Assembly (NCBI GenBank): GCA_021299635.1
Contig: JAJTFA010000003.1
Coordinates: 78,079-142,078, forward strand
Length of the DNA stretch: 64,000 bases
Origin: Sphingobacteriales bacterium
GTDB lineage: Bacteria > Bacteroidota > Bacteroidia > UKL13-3
Reading direction: 5' to 3'
A program made the translations under genes and the position numbers. Positions 1,623 to 45,493 of this stretch are shown here, piece after piece (positions within the stretch are counted from its first letter, which is position 1; each line of letters starts with the position of its first letter). The notes beneath the pieces are model-generated. The model was given only the letters and a program-made list of their open reading frames with translations, did no database searches and was not told the DNA's origin.

Positions 1623-4600
1623 TTACTTAATTACAATTTTCTGCTGCAAACGATTATTATTTTCATCTACTATTAAGGTATACATGCCCGGAGCGAGCGG
1701 TGCGTTAACCGTTAATTCATTTTCACCGGCCTGCAGTGTGCTGCTCTGGCTCCATACTGTTTGACCAAGTAAATTAACTAACCGCGTTTCTACCGCAGTA
1801 GCATTTTTTGCCTGCATGGATATAGTGAAACTTCCATTACTTGGGTTTGGATAAACATGGAATGCACGTAAAGTACTGAGTTTATTTAAGCCTACATTAC
1901 CAATACTAACTTGTTTGCTTGAAGTATCTGTGCAACCTTGCGGGTTGGTTACAACCACCTTAACAGAGCCCGAACCATTGCTTAACCATTGCACCGTTGC
2001 TGCATTGGTATTTTGGCCGGCTACGACAATTCCATTATTTATCTGCCAGTTATAGCTATGATTTAATTGTTGTGCAATTGTGTAGAAATAGGGGGTGCTT
2101 GTTTTTAAGTTAAAACTATCGCCTAACATAGGACCTGTTGTTGGGTTGGGATGAACTATTACCTGCCTAACAATACTATCCTTGCAACCATAGTTTGTGG
2201 TGCTGATTAGTTTCACCGGATAAACACCAACTGCAGCATAGGAATTACCTGGATTTGAAAGTGTGCTCGTTACTCCATTTCCAAAATTCCATTGCACTGT
2301 ATAGCTTCCGTTATCAAGTTGCGTTGAGTCTTTAAATATAAACAGATTGCCCCTTATGCACTGGCCACTATCCTTAGTAGCTATGATTGATTTAGGAAGC
2401 GGAGCATTGAAGATGCGTATGGTGTCAGAGGTGTTTTTGCAACCAACATTATCTGTGAGTGTTACCGTGTATGCACCCGCCTCTGCCGCATTAAGAATTT
2501 GTGTTTGAGCAAGGCTATTATTTCCTTTTTTCCATTGGTAAGTATAACCACTGGCTGCAGTGAGTGCAATGTTATCATTCTTGCATAAACCTAACCTAGG
2601 TGTATTTACGGTTTTATCAGGCAGGTTGCGTATGCTAACCCTTACGCTATCGGTCAAGCTAAAACTGCCAATAGTTTGTGTGCATGTATATGTGGTATTA
2701 GTAGTTGGTGAAACAGTAATGCTTGTTGTGGTATCATTGGTTGACCATTGAACTTTGCTTTGTGTATTTACACCACCAGTATACAATGCTGTTATTTCTT
2801 TTTGAGTAAGTGCACGATTCCAAATTCCCACATCATCTATCTTACCTTTAAATCCATCTCCACCAATGTAAATCGAATCCGTGTTGTCAGGATTTTTATC
2901 GGTATAATTGCAAGTGGAAACTAATTGCCCATCAAGATATATTTTTTTTATGCCTGAGTTATTCCCTGTATTTTGATTTAAAGTAACAACCAAATGATAC
3001 CATTTATTAGTCGTTGGAGCATTAATGTAGCTCCAAGAACAATTACTACCTTGTACACCGGTACCCCAATACAACGCATTTGATAAGCGAAGAATGCTAT
3101 AGTCTCTAGCCGTGCTAAGACCACCCAAAGGTCCTTTGTTCAAAATAAACCCATATCTTTGTAGGTTTGATGTCGCAAGTAAATCTTCCTCATTAACCCA
3201 AAGTGAGATCGAAAGTTGTTTTCCATTTACTGTTCCCACACTATACTTTACTTCATGAGGAATGGCTATTTTACCTGTATTTTGGTTATTGTAATTAAAA
3301 TAGAAAGCGCTATTAGTCTTGCCATATCGATCATTCGTTCCAATAGTCGCACCACTTATTAAGCCATGATTATTATTTCCACTCTCATCAAGCGGGTTGC
3401 CGTTGAAGGGCCACCAGCTTAATAAATTTTTCTTGGGTATATAGCCTGGAACAGATAGCAGAATTTCTGTTCCCTCACATATAATTGTATCTCTTTGTTC
3501 AATACCATCAACAAAGACAACTTTAGTGCTATCAGTTGCTGAGCATCCTGCAGCATTTTGTGCAGTAACTTTATAAACCGAGGCATTCTTAGCCCATATT
3601 GTTTGAGTAGTATCTCCTGTGCTCCATACATATTTGGTATGACCAGCGCCTGCATTTAATAGGATGCTGTCAGCTTTAAATGCTATGGAGGTGTCCGGTA
3701 GTGATACAGTTGGTAATGATGCTACAGACACTCGAATACTATCTGTAAATGTATAACTACCTATTCGTTGGGTGCATCTGTATGTGGTATTGGTGGTTGG
3801 TGTAACAATAATGCTTGCTGCAGTATCGTTGGTTGACCATTGAACTTTGCTTTGCGCAGGCAAATTGCCTAGGATGGATAAACTAATGTTATTACCTGCG
3901 CAAATGGCAGTATCTTTTTGTTGTATGCCCTTTACAAGTAATACCTGGGTACTATCTGTTGCTGAGCAGCCATTTTGATCCTGAACCTTAACCGTAAAAT
4001 TACCATTAAATTTAACCCAGATATTCTGCGTTGTTCTACCGTTGTTCCATAGGTACGTATAGGCGCCTGTAGGAGCTGTAAGTAGAATACTATCTTGCTT
4101 GAATGCGATGCTGGTATCGGCTATATTAAGGTTTATGGGTGCTGAAACCTTTTGCATAAGTGTATTGCTGCTAATTCCACCATTCTTCAGCCTAAGCCTT
4201 ATGTAATAAGTACCTGGTGTTATGTTTAAAGTAGAATTAATACTTGTAACACTAGGGCCAAAACTTCGAATAGTATCAATTTTAGCTAGCGAGGTAAACA
4301 ATGGGTTAAGCGAATACTCTAGATAGGCTGTATCATTTAAAACATTAAATTGACTAACCGATATATTTGAATTACTATTAATAAATGCACACGCAACAGA
4401 GCTTATCGTTATTGCAACACATGGTGAGTCGCAAATTTTTACATCTGCATTGTATTGTGGTGCAATGCCATATCGCCTAGAACCACTTGACGAAAATTCT
4501 GTAACAATCCCACGGATGAATGATAGTGGCGTACCAACTGGGGGCGGTTGGAAAGTATTAGCAACTTTTGGTAAAGTATCTTCATTATCATCTCTGCGAA

Positions 4601-5327
4601 AATAGGCTGAAAAGTCTCTGACGTCAATTACATTACCTAAATTATCTCTTACTGTCCAAAAACTCCTGTTTCCACTAGTTGTAATAGAATTCACTATAAC
4701 ATTTCGTATGATAACCGGTGCGCCTTCCCATCTCTCTGCAGTCTGTTTTTGCGCCAAAGGCGAGCTTGTCTGCCCACCTTGAATTAAATCACTTACAGGA
4801 ATTTCACTATAAGTTATTGTTGTATCATTTAAAGATAATAACTCTACTGCGTTACTAAAAATTGAATTATTTCTAATGAGATTAATTTGAGTCTCACCTT
4901 GGAAGTCTCTTATTACTCCGGTAACTCTTACTCTTTTACCACGAACAAAATTTTGATAGAAATTGGTTTCTGTTAATAAATTGGCAAGCGTAGTTCCAGT
5001 TCCGCTTGGTTCACACATTACAAGAACACTACTCCAAGGTCCTCCTCCTATCCTTTGCATGTAGGCTGCTTTTCTGTTTACAGAAAGCCCATAAATCTTT
5101 GGATTCGTAACGACCACACCTTCAAAAGTAACGGTGTCTTGATAAGTTGTATTTTTAAAAACTGGGGTAGTGTAATCAGGCAAGGTATTAGCAGTTGAAT
5201 CTAGTAATCTTGCTTGGTTAACAAATTGAATAGAATCTATAGGTAAAATTGGATATGGTGCAAATTGTGCATAAGAGAAAATGGTCGTTAATCTCATAAA
5301 AACCAATAAGCAGAGTATTTTTTTCAT
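1623..5327 (-). CDS. T9SS-secreted multidomain surface protein with a LamG/concanavalin-like domain, PKD/Ig-like repeats and a T9SS C-terminal sorting domain
   Basis: 1234 aa with an N-terminal signal peptide (MKKILCLLVFMRLTTIFSYAQ). There is an internal repeat, QSKVQWSTNDT(A/T)xSIxV(T/S)PTTNTTYxCTQxIGS..., occurring twice and also similar at DNA level. A LamG-like stretch reads LLSWWPFNGNPLDESGNNNHGLISGATIGTNDRYGK. A PKD-like stretch reads TVQWNFGNGVTSTLSNPGNSY. The C-terminus VYPNPSNGSFTISMQAKNATAVETRLVNLLGQTVWSQ...GMYTLIVDENNNRLQQKIVIK is a typical T9SS CTD. Confidence 0.85.
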   Translation of the reverse strand: MKKILCLLVFMRLTTIFSYAQFAPYPILPIDSIQFVNQARLLDSTANTLPDYTTPVFKNTTYQDTVTFEGVVVTNPKIYGLSVNRKAAYMQRIGGGPWSSVLVMCEPSGTGTTLANLLTETNFYQNFVRGKRVRVTGVIRDFQGETQINLIRNNSIFSNAVELLSLNDTTITYSEIPVSDLIQGGQTSSPLAQKQTAERWEGAPVIIRNVIVNSITTSGNRSFWTVRDNLGNVIDVRDFSAYFRRDDNEDTLPKVANTFQPPPVGTPLSFIRGIVTEFSSSGSRRYGIAPQYNADVKICDSPCVAITISSVACAFINSNSNISVSQFNVLNDTAYLEYSLNPLFTSLAKIDTIRSFGPSVTSINSTLNITPGTYYIRLRLKNGGISSNTLMQKVSAPINLNIADTSIAFKQDSILLTAPTGAYTYLWNNGRTTQNIWVKFNGNFTVKVQDQNGCSATDSTQVLLVKGIQQKDTAICAGNNISLSILGNLPAQSKVQWSTNDTAASIIVTPTTNTTYRCTQRIGSYTFTDSIRVSVASLPTVSLPDTSIAFKADSILLNAGAGHTKYVWSTGDTTQTIWAKNASVYKVTAQNAAGCSATDSTKVVFVDGIEQRDTIICEGTEILLSVPGYIPKKNLLSWWPFNGNPLDESGNNNHGLISGATIGTNDRYGKTNSAFYFNYNNQNTGKIAIPHEVKYSVGTVNGKQLSISLWVNEEDLLATSNLQRYGFILNKGPLGGLSTARDYSILRLSNALYWGTGVQGSNCSWSYINAPTTNKWYHLVVTLNQNTGNNSGIKKIYLDGQLVSTCNYTDKNPDNTDSIYIGGDGFKGKIDDVGIWNRALTQKEITALYTGGVNTQSKVQWSTNDTTTSITVSPTTNTTYTCTQTIGSFSLTDSVRVSIRNLPDKTVNTPRLGLCKNDNIALTAASGYTYQWKKGNNSLAQTQILNAAEAGAYTVTLTDNVGCKNTSDTIRIFNAPLPKSIIATKDSGQCIRGNLFIFKDSTQLDNGSYTVQWNFGNGVTSTLSNPGNSYAAVGVYPVKLISTTNYGCKDSIVRQVIVHPNPTTGPMLGDSFNLKTSTPYFYTIAQQLNHSYNWQINNGIVVAGQNTNAATVQWLSNGSGSVKVVVTNPQGCTDTSSKQVSIGNVGLNKLSTLRAFHVYPNPSNGSFTISMQAKNATAVETRLVNLLGQTVWSQSSTLQAGENELTVNAPLAPGMYTLIVDENNNRLQQKIVIK

Positions 5328-5527
5328 GTTAATTGTGAAGTTAATTTTAATGGAAAAAACTATTTACCAAATTGAATAAACTTTTATTTGGTAAACCATG
5401 TGCAAGATAAAAATATTTTGAATATTGAGAAATCCAGCTTCTAATTCTTAACGATTAACAAATTGGTTTTTGGTTTACGTTGTCAACTGAATAGTGCTCT
5501 TAGGTTGATCATGTTTCGTTTTCATTG

Positions 5528-5621
5528 TTGTAGCCCGTAGGAGGGCCGAGCGTTATAAAAATGATTCGGGGAATCATTTTAGCGAGGAGCCAGACCGTGG
5601 GGCAGGTATTCCCCTAGGGCT
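5528..5621. repeat. Copy 1 of a tandem ~94-nt structured repeat that shares 14 nt with the 3' end of the adjacent tRNA-Glu
   Basis: The sequence ttgtagcccgtaggagggccgagcgttataaaaatgattcggggaatcattttagcgaggagccagaccgtggggcaggtattcccctagggct contains perfect internal hairpins (aaaatgattc/gaatcatttt and gggg/cccc). It is about 95% identical to copy 2. Confidence 0.7.
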
Positions 5622-5662
5622 AAAAAAGTACTAAGTCTTGAATATTGGTTAAAGCTTACTGC

Positions 5663-5692
5663 ATAAAAAAAGCCTCACCATAAGGTGAAGCT
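5663..5692 (-). terminator. Rho-independent terminator-like hairpin followed by a T-run on the minus strand, between repeat copies 2 and 1
   Basis: The stem is gcctcacc ataa ggtgaagc and is preceded on the plus strand by a7, which is a T-run after the hairpin on the minus strand. Confidence 0.5.
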
Positions 5693-5705
5693 GGGAATTT
5701 ACTTT

Positions 5706-5798
5706 TTGTAGCCCGTAGGAGGGCCGAGCGTTAGAAAATGATTCGGGGAATCATTTTAGCGAGGAGCCAGACCGTGGGGCGGGTATTCCCCAAGGGCT
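5706..5798. repeat. Copy 2 of the tandem ~94-nt structured repeat
   Basis: The sequence ttgtagcccgtaggagggccgagcgttagaaaatgattcggggaatcattttagcgaggagccagaccgtggggcgggtattccccaagggct differs from copy 1 at only a few positions. The unit period is about 177 bp (5528, 5706, and the tRNA 3' end at 5884). Confidence 0.7.
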
Positions 5799-5840
5799 TC
5801 AATATCATAAAGCGCAAAAAAATTGGATTATTTAACTGCA

Positions 5841-5867
5841 TAAAAAAAACCTCACCTGGGGTGAAGT
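5841..5867 (-). terminator. Rho-independent terminator immediately downstream of tRNA-Glu on the minus strand
   Basis: The stem is cctcacc tggg gtgaag, flanked by a8 on the plus strand, which is T8 after the hairpin on the minus strand. Confidence 0.55.
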
Positions 5868-5883
5868 TTTATCTCAATATTTG

Positions 5884-5955
5884 TAGCCCGTAGGGGAATC
5901 GAACCCCTCTTTCCAGGATGAAAACCTGATGTCCTAACCGATAGACGAACGGGCC
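5884..5955 (-). tRNA. tRNA-Glu (anticodon TTC)
   Basis: The minus-strand read GGCCCGTTCGTCTATCGGTTAGGACATCAGGTTTTCATCCTGGAAAGAGGGGTTCGATTCCCCTACGGGCTA folds as a cloverleaf. It has a 7-bp acceptor stem, U8, D-stem GTCT/GGAC, anticodon stem TCAGG/CCTGA, anticodon loop TTTTCAT (anticodon TTC), and T-arm AGGGG TTCGATT CCCCT. Position 1-72 appears to be a G.U pair. Confidence 0.85.
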
Positions 5956-6001
5956 ATTAAAGGGCTGCAAAAATAGGTCTCTTTTTTAATTTCCAAAAAG
6001 A

Positions 6002-6032
6002 TTTGTTTAAAAATATTGGTAGGGTAACTTTG
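6002..6032 (+). promoter_or_regulatory. Bacteroidota-type promoter for gap, with a -33 TTTG box and a -7 TAnnTTTG box
   Basis: TTTG lies at 6002-6005 and TAACTTTG at 6025-6032, about 19 nt apart and about 38 nt upstream of the gap ATG. This matches the established Bacteroidota sigma-A promoter consensus. Confidence 0.45.
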
Positions 6033-6055
6033 CAGCCGCTTAATAAAAAAACTAA

Positions 6056-7069
<1,014 letters not shown>

Positions 7070-43435: not shown

Positions 43436-43510
43436 GGTCTCGTAGTTCAATGGATAGAATAGATGTTTCCTAAACATTTGATACAGGTTCGATTCCTGTC
43501 GAGACTACCA
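43436..43510 (+). tRNA. tRNA-Arg (anticodon CCT), with an encoded 3' CCA
   Basis: GGTCTCGTAGTTCAATGGATAGAATAGATGTTTCCTAAACATTTGATACAGGTTCGATTCCTGTCGAGACTACCA folds as a cloverleaf. It has U8, A14, G18G19, anticodon stem GATGT/ACATT, anticodon loop TTCCTAA (anticodon CCT), and T-arm ACAGG TTCGATT CCTGT. Position 1-72 appears to be G.U. Confidence 0.8.
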
Positions 43511-43775
43511 ATCCTTTTCTTCTCATATCAACTTATCTAATACCCTATTTTGGGCAATTTGTGGAATCTTCTTTGTCTGCTGTGAAGCCATTTCGTATCA
43601 ATGGATTTTAATCGGGCAAAAAGCATATAAAGTTGTTTTATGAGTTCTTCTCTCTTGCTGTAATCATCAGTATATTAGATAAATGCATAAATATTATCCA
43701 TTTTATTGGTTTGGGCGCAAGGAAAAAGTCTAAATCTCGTCTAACTTCTTTACTTGCAATGCGTCACACCAACCC

Positions 43776-44462
43776 ATGCGTATTCTAATACTTTTTCTGC
43801 TTTTAGGCCATACCCTCTTTGCTCAACTTAATGAGCAGTGCACCATAAACGTTCACATTCGTTTTGGCCAATCTGATATGCAAGTTGGTGACACATGTTA
43901 CCCAATTTTTCAAACCGACAGCCTGAGGCTGGAAGCGGTGAAGTTTTATATGGCAGGTATTGAGTTATGGAAAGATAATAAAAGGGTTTGGGCAGAGCCA
44001 AACAGTTTTCATTTAATTGATGCAACAGAACCGGCATCCATGAAAATTAAACTGCCAATATCCAACGCCATACAGTATAACCAATTAAAGTTTAGCATAG
44101 GCATAGATAGTGCTACCAACACAGCAGGTGCCATGGGTGGTGATTTAGATCCAACCAAAGGAATGTACTGGACATGGCAAAGTGGGTATATTAATGTTAA
44201 AATGGAGGGAACGTATAGCCGAAGCACTGCACGAAACAAAAAGTTTCAATTTCATATTGGTGGGTATAAGTATCCATATGCTGCAGTGCAGCCTATTTCG
44301 TTGCCTGTACAATCTAACTCAGGTATACATCTGGCATTGAATTTAGAACAATTATTGGAACGCTTGTTTACAGATAATCAGTTTGAAATAATGTCTCCGT
44401 GTCAGGAAGCGGTGAGGGTGTCTCAACAGATGGCAAGCCTTTTTACACTTATGAATCCATGA
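43776..44462 (+). CDS. Secreted MbnP-like (putative copper-binding) protein, partner of the downstream di-haem peroxidase
   Basis: 228 aa with a signal peptide (MRILILFLLLGHTLFAQ). Its size, position immediately upstream of a MauG/MbnH-like di-haem CCP with a 4-nt overlap, and conserved Trp-rich stretch (GMYWTWQSGY) fit my recollection of MbnP-family proteins. This is not verified by search. Confidence 0.5.
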   Translation: MRILILFLLLGHTLFAQLNEQCTINVHIRFGQSDMQVGDTCYPIFQTDSLRLEAVKFYMAGIELWKDNKRVWAEPNSFHLIDATEPASMKIKLPISNAIQYNQLKFSIGIDSATNTAGAMGGDLDPTKGMYWTWQSGYINVKMEGTYSRSTARNKKFQFHIGGYKYPYAAVQPISLPVQSNSGIHLALNLEQLLERLFTDNQFEIMSPCQEAVRVSQQMASLFTLMNP

Positions 44463-45493
44463 AAAAGCAGATACTATTTTTACTACTCATCACGGTGCTT
44501 ATCTGCGGATTTACGGCTGAGCAAATTCAACTATTTTCTATCCCTAAAGGTTGGCCTAAGCCTGCCTATAACATGCGCAAAAATCCATTACAAGCGGCTA
44601 ACATAGCGTTGGGCCGTGTATTGTTTTATGATCCGATTTTATCGGCCAATCAAACCATATCCTGTGCAAGTTGTCATTCGGTATATACAGCCTTTACGCA
44701 TGTTGATCATTCATTGAGTCATGGAATAAACGATAGGGTAGGAAAGCGCAATGCTCCTGCGCTGATGAATCTTGCCTGGCACTCTTCGTTTATGTGGGAT
44801 GGGGCCATCAATCATCTCGATATGCAAGCCCTGGCTCCTATTACACATCCGGATGAAATGGGTGAGAACCTTGAAAGTGTCGTATCAAAATTGAAGGCAT
44901 CAGCTTTGTATCCTTCACTTTATTATAAAGCTTATGGCGACAGCCAGATAACAGGTCAGCGCACATTGCAGGCAATTTCTCAGTTTCTGCTCACCTTGGT
45001 TAGCGCGCAATCAAAATATGATAGCGTGATGCGAAAAGAGGCTATATTTACCCAACAAGAGCAAAATGGTTATCGGTTATTTAAACAGCATTGTTCATCA
45101 TGCCATACCGAACCTCTATTTACCAACTTACAATATGAAAATAATGGTTTACCTGTTGATACCTCTCTAAATGATTACGGGCGAATGCACGTTACTTTAA
45201 ATCCATCAGATTCCTTACGATTTAAGGTTCCAACCTTACGTAATATTGAATTCTCATATCCTTATATGCACGATGGGCGTTTTCAGAAGTTAGCACAGGT
45301 ACTCAATCATTATACAAATGGAATACGTCAAAGCACTACAAGCGTGGCTATACTTAAGCTTCCAATTGTACTGAACTCAAATGAGAAAGTTGATGTGATT
45401 GCTTTTTTACTTACGCTAACCGATAAGCATTTTTTATTCAACCCACAATATACTTACCCCAAACAGCTTTTATCAATCAACCAAACCCCTTAA
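44459..45493 (+). CDS. Di-haem cytochrome c peroxidase (MauG/MbnH/CCP family)
   Basis: Two CxxCH haem-binding motifs are present (CASCH and CSSCH), with a signal peptide (MKKQILFLLLITVLICGF) and CCP-like length. I take the start at the ATG at 44459, not the upstream extension in the track. Confidence 0.85.
   Translation: MKKQILFLLLITVLICGFTAEQIQLFSIPKGWPKPAYNMRKNPLQAANIALGRVLFYDPILSANQTISCASCHSVYTAFTHVDHSLSHGINDRVGKRNAPALMNLAWHSSFMWDGAINHLDMQALAPITHPDEMGENLESVVSKLKASALYPSLYYKAYGDSQITGQRTLQAISQFLLTLVSAQSKYDSVMRKEAIFTQQEQNGYRLFKQHCSSCHTEPLFTNLQYENNGLPVDTSLNDYGRMHVTLNPSDSLRFKVPTLRNIEFSYPYMHDGRFQKLAQVLNHYTNGIRQSTTSVAILKLPIVLNSNEKVDVIAFLLTLTDKHFLFNPQYTYPKQLLSINQTP

Follow-up and report, generated by a model that had tools for sequence, protein, structure and literature searches.

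tRNA-Glu-anchored copies of a widespread palindromic repeat in Bacteroidota-like bacteria

Why should a tRNA-Glu gene be followed by two highly structured units that end in the 3' end of the tRNA but do not otherwise look like one? An earlier note, made from sequence alone, had described two near-identical units of ~94 nt at 5528-5621 and 5706-5798 that recur at the same ~177-bp period as the tRNA gene, begin on the plus strand with the same 14 nt, contain perfect internal hairpins and an outer closing stem, and are in part followed by terminators. To determine whether this arrangement is real, we analyzed the whole 64,000-nt stretch of DNA carrying it (hereafter the window). ARAGORN and the Rfam tRNA model (56.5 bits) place tRNA-Glu(UUC) at 5883-5955 on the minus strand, and Tandem Repeats Finder reports a single array at 5528-5856 with a period of 177, 1.9 copies and 84% matches. 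The 14-mer TTGTAGCCCGTAGG occurs exactly three times in the 64 kb, at 5528, 5706 and 5881, against 0.25 expected; the third copy is the 3' end of the tRNA plus 2-3 trailer bases (CCTACGGGCTACAA, 5881-5894 on the plus strand). A 41-nt stretch of the unit body is identical in both units, with 0 matches in shuffled sequences. The perfect 10-bp hairpin AAAATGATTC/GAATCATTTT, termed P3, lies at 5558-5580 and 5735-5757, and the GGGG/CCCC hairpin and the AGCCC/GGGCT closing stem are present in the sequence and in the minimum-free-energy folds. On the minus strand the units fold at -30.3 and -29.8 kcal/mol (z = -2.5 and -2.25), whereas the plus strand gives z of about -1. The array is flanked by a gene for a 1234-aa type IX secretion system (T9SS) cargo protein and by the GAPDH gene (gap), and the ten other ORFs of the window that were examined are housekeeping genes. 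The observation made in the earlier note is thus confirmed, everything described in it lying at the stated coordinates.

The transcriptional signals around the array were examined next. Upstream of the tRNA, on the minus strand at 5968-5997, TTTG is followed after about 18 nt by TATTTTTG, which ends 12 nt before the tRNA 5' end; this resembles the Bacteroidetes -33/-7 promoter consensus, although the assignment is inferred by reading the sequence and a sigma-70 scan found nothing. Minus-strand terminator-like hairpins with T runs lie after the tRNA (T2, 5870-5846, 11-bp stem) and after unit 2 (T1, 5692-5671, 9-bp stem), the two being homologous (CTTCACC..GGTGAGG) and forming the first elements of two modules, A and B, respectively. 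No terminator follows unit 1. Between the tRNA terminator and the unit no promoter could be recognised, no sigma-70 match being present and only near-matches to the Bacteroidetes -7 box that overlap T tracts.

The units are not simple duplications of the tRNA, as the earlier note had stated. ARAGORN finds only the real tRNA and the Rfam tRNA model gives no hit on the units at E <= 10 on either strand; a tRNA-like fold of the antisense strand with a true T arm was also considered and was not supported. The body is nevertheless not wholly unrelated to the tRNA, a point that the earlier note had missed. On the plus strand, 5599-5621 (GGGGCAGGTATTCCCCTAGGGCT) and 5776-5798 resemble the T arm plus acceptor 3' strand of the tRNA (GGGGTTCGATTCCCCTACGGGCT). 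Read on the minus strand, the 5' part of each unit (AGCCCTAGGGGAATACCTGCCCC), which includes the GGGG/CCCC hairpin and AGCCC, is therefore a decayed reverse complement of the tRNA's own 3' end (AGCCCGTAGGGGAATCGAACCCC), and each unit consists of an inverted tRNA 3' end, a core of ~62 nt, and a direct copy of the tRNA 3' end plus trailer ACAA. In unit 2 these parts lie at 5776-5798, 5718-5777 and 5706-5719, and in unit 1 at 5599-5621, 5540-5602 and 5528-5541, all on the minus strand. The inverted copy is clearer in relatives (designated here by L numbers): L012 has GGAGAATCGAACCCTCC, L043 has 23 of 24 bases of its neighbouring tRNA's 3' end in inverted order, and L013 and a variant unit in L003 carry TTGTAGCCC at the 5' end. 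These results refute the possibility that the units are decayed tRNA-Glu pseudogenes or chance similarities: although they share 14 nt (23 nt with 5 mismatches) with the tRNA 3' end and have an xGCCC 5' end, no cloverleaf is found, the 5' part is the reverse complement of the tRNA 3' end and not its 5' half, the shared body has no match in shuffled sequences, and in most relatives the core is found without any tRNA.

To assess the stability of the array, contigs encoding exactly the same GAPDH were compared. They carry two standard units as in the window (L001, L004), one standard unit plus a variant unit (L002), or two standard units plus the variant (L003); copy number varies from 1 to 3 among strains with identical GAPDH. 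The variant shares only the last 44 nt with the standard unit, starting in the loop of the central hairpin; it has a different, highly hairpinned body, found only in these close relatives, and a perfect 14-bp terminal inverted repeat of the tRNA end. The differences are whole terminator-plus-unit modules gained or lost between copies of the tRNA 3' end, where the breakpoints lie. Such changes can be explained by ordinary homologous unequal crossing-over. Several contigs carrying this GAPDH end inside the array, indicating that it breaks assemblies.

We then asked whether the units have relatives elsewhere. A scan of a genome collection with a purine/pyrimidine pattern for the non-tRNA part identified a close relative (L011) and two distant metagenome-assembled genomes (L012, Bacteroidia; L013, Roseivirgaceae), in both of which a single unit follows tRNA-Glu and a terminator. 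The three lineages share the block CTGGCYCCTYCGCTAAAA-hairpin-TTTYYTAACGCTCGGYCCTCC, with hairpin stems that differ but stay paired (ATTC/GAAT, CTCC/GGAG, TCC/GGA). A metagenome scan with a pattern for the core only (..CTGGCTCCTYCGCTAAAA-hairpin-TTTCTTAACGCTCGGYCCTCC) returned at least 120 loci, and an HMM of the core gave 167 hits in 130 loci, with up to 5-6 per contig; in the window it hit only the two tandem copies, with 43.2 bits for unit 1 and 45.5 bits for unit 2, so that dispersal within this particular genome is not shown. The invariance of CGCTAAAA and TAACGCTCGGNCCTCC within the metagenome set is imposed by the search pattern, and the independent evidence for conservation is the comparison of the window with L012 and L013. 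Neighbouring SusC-like and T9SS genes and a GC content of 32-51% point to Bacteroidota. Rfam searches at gathering and E-value thresholds on the window, the variant unit, 15 large loci, a subfamily-i repeat (see below) and 10 small loci found only tRNAs and one group II intron. Three scans of viral contigs and a BLAST search of plasmids found nothing, giving no support to a phage or plasmid origin, and literature searches found no description of this element. The family is absent from Rfam and from repeat annotation, in agreement with the earlier note, which had recognised no known family.

The relatives occur in four settings. Firstly, in arrays of unrelated ORFs on one strand (glutamine amidotransferase, YARHG, a ParE pair and others; L133, L107, L017 and L031), each ORF is followed by a 200-610-nt attC-like repeat that begins at the stop codon and contains the core near its 3' end (subfamily i). 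These arrays obey the integron cassette rule: each cassette starts G|TTAnnnnnn and its own terminal repeat starts with the exact reverse complement nnnnnnTAAC, with 0-1 mismatches in 10 nt in 13 of ~17 cassettes, and many end boxes are the canonical GCCTAAC/GTTAGGC. A genuine group II intron domain 5-6 lies in one such array, L089, on the opposite strand. Secondly, the core occurs in intergenic palindromes of about 125 nt with arms ACCCCCTTYC.../...GRAAAGGGGGT, in either orientation relative to genes. Thirdly, it is linked to tRNA-Glu in the window lineage and in L012, L013, L043, L096, L098, L106 and L123; the order is always tRNA-Glu, terminator, unit, on one strand, and a terminator usually follows the unit (L011, L013, L043, L096, L098 and L123). 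Fourthly, it lies inside Rhs/YD-repeat ORFs (L061, L073, L077 and L113), antisense, in frame and without stops. One insertion reads ..FRFNGKEW[EGRALRNKPVAYFSEGASLPRWRG]NFYYGARYYDP.., a second site follows PWG, and the Rhs_assc_core profile is interrupted at position 22/23, matching only from position 23 onward, after the insertion. The arms differ between subfamilies but stay complementary. In the tRNA-linked lineages both arms track the neighbouring tRNA, AGCCCGTAGG/CCTACGGGCT versus AGTCCGTGGG/CCCACGGACT, and the match includes 1-3 trailer bases that are not in the mature tRNA.

To distinguish a constraint on DNA from one on RNA, base pairing in the central hairpin was analyzed. Among 26 distinct stem sequences, 589 of 601 pairs (98%) are Watson-Crick, and the exceptions are 4 G·U, 4 A·C and 4 other, so that wobble pairs are neither common nor biased to a strand. 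This is the pattern of a DNA palindrome rather than of a selected RNA helix. RNAalifold finds compensatory changes in 5 pairs. The antisense frame is open in most relatives, but unit 1 has a stop and the constraint is on base pairing, so coding potential was rejected. A group II intron domain 5/6 was rejected as well: the hairpin has domain-5-like geometry (14 bp plus a 2-nt bulge), but the Intron_gpII model does not hit it and the triad pairing is wrong.

The main rival explanation is that the units are small RNA genes, or 3'-external-transcribed-spacer RNAs, as one of the options in the earlier note had it. In this view, transcription reading through the tRNA-Glu terminator would yield the unit and the next terminator, the closing stem copying the acceptor/T-stem stack would be cut by RNase P and the 3'-end trimming enzymes like a tRNA, and the conserved single-stranded C/U-rich strands on either side of the hairpin would bind a protein or G/A-rich RNA targets. 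The terminators that follow tRNA and units on the same strand are as expected of a transcribed gene, the closing stem equals the acceptor stem, with A1-U72 in place of G1·U72, plus the discriminator base, and only the minus strand folds better than shuffled sequences. RNAalifold also supports a short 3' hairpin, GGYCC/GGRCU, that covaries with the tRNA type and competes with the closing stem. In addition, the gap / tRNA-Glu / terminator / unit arrangement is kept between genomes whose GAPDH is only 56% identical; the core stays 78% identical (shuffled mean 57%, maximum 65%) while the gap-tRNA spacer is at noise level (48% versus 45%), which looks like selection for a local function. Against this view, no promoter is recognisable between the tRNA terminator and the unit, only 10-20 nt separating them in L013 and L106, unit 1 has no terminator, the hairpin shows no G·U excess on the supposed RNA strand, the arms copy trailer bases and an inverted T loop, neither of which has meaning in RNA, and no Rfam family matches. 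Furthermore, the same core occurs antisense inside ORFs, in either orientation between genes and within attC-like sites, and outside the tRNA-linked setting downstream terminators are lacking. The small RNA, whose expression and processing are inferred from the sequence layout alone, is therefore neither proven nor excluded, and we consider it possible but less likely than a DNA-level element.

A second possibility is that the units are inert scars, i.e. attL/attR-type duplications of the tRNA-Glu 3' end left by successive integrations and deletions of genomic islands and later amplified by unequal crossing-over. Direct repeats of a tRNA 3' end are the classic footprint of tyrosine-integrase elements, a lone tRNA-Glu-3'-like remnant exists in L014, L012 has an extra partial repeat, GCTCGGTCCTCCTA, followed by an AT-rich orphan ORF after the unit, and copy number is unstable. 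However, scars would keep neither a 62-nt core at 78% identity next to a randomised spacer nor a covarying hairpin, would not recur in more than 120 unrelated contexts without tRNAs and do not explain the inverted copy, and among the window ORFs examined no integrase or island lies beside the array. Conservation and family data argue strongly against this explanation, which is very unlikely.

The topology of the modules was compared with that of the cassettes. The outer 5' flank of unit 1 (5622-5630, minus sense GTACTTTTT) is complementary to the start of its own module (AAAAAGTA, plus strand 5698-5705, just after unit 2 on the minus strand) and not to its own downstream flank. Unit 2 behaves likewise with the tRNA trailer, as do the single units of L013 (CCTTTTTTGCG with CGAAAAGG), L012 and L043, the pairing extending over 8-17 nt. 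This is the topology of the subfamily-i cassettes, but as it is equally described as a long palindrome centred on each terminator, it is suggestive and not decisive. An invertible terminator, generated by recombination between the T arm and its inverted copy, was not supported, as no inverted spacer was seen between the related contigs L096 and L098. Searches for an associated enzyme gave no candidate: no recombinase, transposase or HUH nuclease was found in the window ORFs examined or near the relatives, clustering of 1137 flanking ORFs from 120 loci showed no recurrent partner, and tblastn with an approximate IntI1 sequence found nothing in the window and hit only one ordinary Bacteroidetes integrase, in L073. 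Retron, bridge-RNA, omega-RNA and DGR models were rejected as no reverse transcriptase, recombinase or TnpB lies nearby.

Combined, these results lead us to propose, tentatively and at less than even odds, that each unit is a copy of a palindromic repeat acting at the DNA level, as a hairpin-forming recombination site of the attC or REP kind. The core is a structure-conserved, sequence-variable 9-10-bp hairpin flanked by two conserved pyrimidine-rich strands and closed by mutually complementary arms, which in the tRNA-Glu-linked subfamily are copies of the tRNA 3' end. In this model the repeating module is trailer, terminator, inverted arm, core and direct arm, the tRNA 3' end acts as the anchor site, and modules are added, lost and exchanged by recombination at the repeated tRNA-3'-end copies. 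The analysis itself establishes the membership in the family, the arm-core-arm anatomy, the covariation of the hairpin without strand bias, the strain-level gain and loss of whole modules, the old linkage to tRNA-Glu and the presence of the same core inside the recombination sites of cassette arrays. We infer, on the other hand, that the single-stranded or cruciform DNA is the active form, that a recombinase or HUH-type nuclease encoded elsewhere acts on it rather than plain homologous unequal crossing-over, and that transcripts of the units are by-products of tRNA read-through. The extreme conservation of the core is not explained by the attC analogy, since in integrons the integrase binds the arms and not the centre. 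The interpretation given in the earlier note is thus partly supported: an unusual repetitive element and repeated recombination at the tRNA 3' end, two of its three options, both fit the data, whereas the third, the small RNA, is weakened.

A more speculative and unlikely, but not excluded, view is that the tRNA-Glu locus is a small, integrase-distal cassette platform of a new type, in which the tRNA-Glu 3' end plays the part of attI, each terminator-plus-unit is an ORF-less cassette and the folded stem of its site reproduces the double-stranded tRNA-Glu 3' end. The shared core would then be a mobile or recruitable module that also builds the giant (200-610 nt) attC sites of Bacteroidota cassette arrays, giving a concrete lead on where attC sites and cassettes come from, an old open question. 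If the DNA-level reading is right, one conserved 62-nt module links tRNA-linked tandem repeats, a curiosity known since the E. coli tyrT locus, interspersed palindromic repeats that can sit in frame in genes, and the recombination sites of gene-cassette arrays, which are usually treated separately. A family that exists both free-standing and inside unusually long attC-like sites makes the question of their origin testable by comparative genomics and recombination assays. These sites are also longer than the size limits used by integron-finding software, and the integron literature searched reports few integrons in Bacteroidetes and does not describe such sites.

The units were finally compared with known systems. 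Like the attL/attR duplications made by integrative elements, they involve direct repeats of the 3' end of a tRNA gene extending a few bases past it, but the repeats are 177 bp apart with no element between them, an inverted copy is also present and the content is conserved far beyond neutral expectation. Like REP/BIME/REPIN, ERIC and Rickettsia palindromic elements (RPE), the family comprises short, hairpin-forming repeats, multicopy across the relatives but with only the two tandem copies in the window, lying between genes in either orientation, and, as for RPEs, some copies, in relatives only, sit in frame inside protein-coding genes; the sequences are unrelated, the phylum differs, a conserved centre with subfamily-specific arms is unusual, neither a RAYT or TnpA partner nor a target-site duplication was seen at the loci examined, and the stable tRNA-Glu-anchored subfamily has no counterpart known to us. 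As in integron attC sites, the units are imperfect palindromes whose ends pair (AGCCC(U)AGG/CCUA(C)GGGCU) and whose stems vary in sequence but keep their structure, and modular arrays are formed; the same core lies inside cassette-array sites with canonical boxes. However, the window units have no RYYYAAC/GTTRRRY boxes, their modules hold only a terminator and no ORF, no integrase was found nearby, the centre is conserved where that of attC sites is variable and their ends conserved, and the related attC-like sites are far above the usual 57-141 nt. The closest named precedent for the local picture is the E. coli tyrT locus, with its 178-bp repeats and RtT RNA (RF00391), where tandem repeats of almost the same period lie directly downstream of a tRNA gene and on its strand, each carries the last bases of that tRNA, and copy number changes by recombination between the repeats. 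Co-transcription with the tRNA and processing are features of rtT, and would here be an inference from the terminator layout alone. The two systems belong to different phyla and show no match in sequence or structure, the RF00391 model giving no hit even at E <= 10 on 5300-6100, and the units described here carry in addition an inverted copy of the tRNA end and a core that belongs to a dispersed family found without tRNAs.

A variant unit was present in L003 (155-325) and L002 (683-850), two contigs encoding the same GAPDH as the window, and in the close relative L011 (240-400). This variant shares only the last 44 nt with the standard unit, the breakpoint being located in the hairpin loop, and it carries a different body made of three perfect hairpins together with a perfect 14-bp terminal inverted repeat of the tRNA-Glu 3' end; in L011, the 5' arm has two uncompensated changes. 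Several independent assemblies carrying the identical GAPDH (contigs L005, L006, L008 and L010) break inside the tRNA-Glu/repeat array, with contig ends 158-192 nt upstream of gap (about position 5880-5913 of the window). The array is therefore an assembly breakpoint, and copy numbers in MAGs may be understated. At 43436-45493 of the window, tRNA-Arg(CCT) is followed by an MbnP-like gene and a di-haem MauG/CCP-like peroxidase gene; no repeat units follow this tRNA. The window also contains a single ORF of 4265 aa on the plus strand (17216-30013).

In L012, a distant MAG of the Bacteroidia with a tRNA-Glu-linked unit, a partial second copy of the 3' end of the unit (GCTCGGTCCTCCTA) was found 22 nt after the unit (about 2100-2120, minus strand); it is followed by an AT-rich segment with an orphan 178-aa ORF (1426-1962), before GC-rich core genes, and this may be a small inserted cassette or island. 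The comparison of two other tRNA-Glu-linked loci, L043 and L106, showed that the same terminator (CGCCCGCCATAG...GCGACGGCGGGC) follows the unit in L043 but follows the tRNA itself in L106. Terminator and unit modules therefore appear to be shuffled between lineages. In other loci (L078, positions 1420-1600, and L029, L058, L086 and L093), the core was found as head-to-head pairs in which a partial inverted copy is nested in the 5' arm of a full copy.

Cassette arrays with canonical integron end boxes (GCCTAAC...GTTAGGC) that obey the cassette rule were found in contig L133 (1-5194) and also in contigs L107, L017, L031, L046, L051 and L088. The attC-like repeats of these arrays are 200-610 nt long, well beyond the usual 57-141 nt, and no integrase is visible on these short contigs. 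In L133 (2330-2650), the long attC-like repeat contains 4-6 tandem sub-repeats of about 45 nt (TTGTACCGCGACAC... / TTGCACCGTGACAGCTTTCTGGCT...) that resemble iterons or protein-binding arrays. In contig L089, a group II intron domain 5-6 (2701-2778, minus strand; Rfam, 60.4 bits) lies inside a cassette array on the strand opposite the cassettes. The intron perhaps extends to about 3128; if its 5' end is near this position, it would be an ORF-less intron of about 420 nt. The layout recalls that of attC-targeting group IIC introns.

Lastly, the core was found in frame, antisense and without stops inside Rhs/YD-repeat genes of four metagenome loci (L073, 2448-4013, minus strand; L113, 3379-4104, plus strand; L061, 597-660; L077, 289-352), at two positions, after GKEW and after PWG. 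At these sites it interrupts the Rhs_assc_core domain, as Rickettsia palindromic elements interrupt genes.
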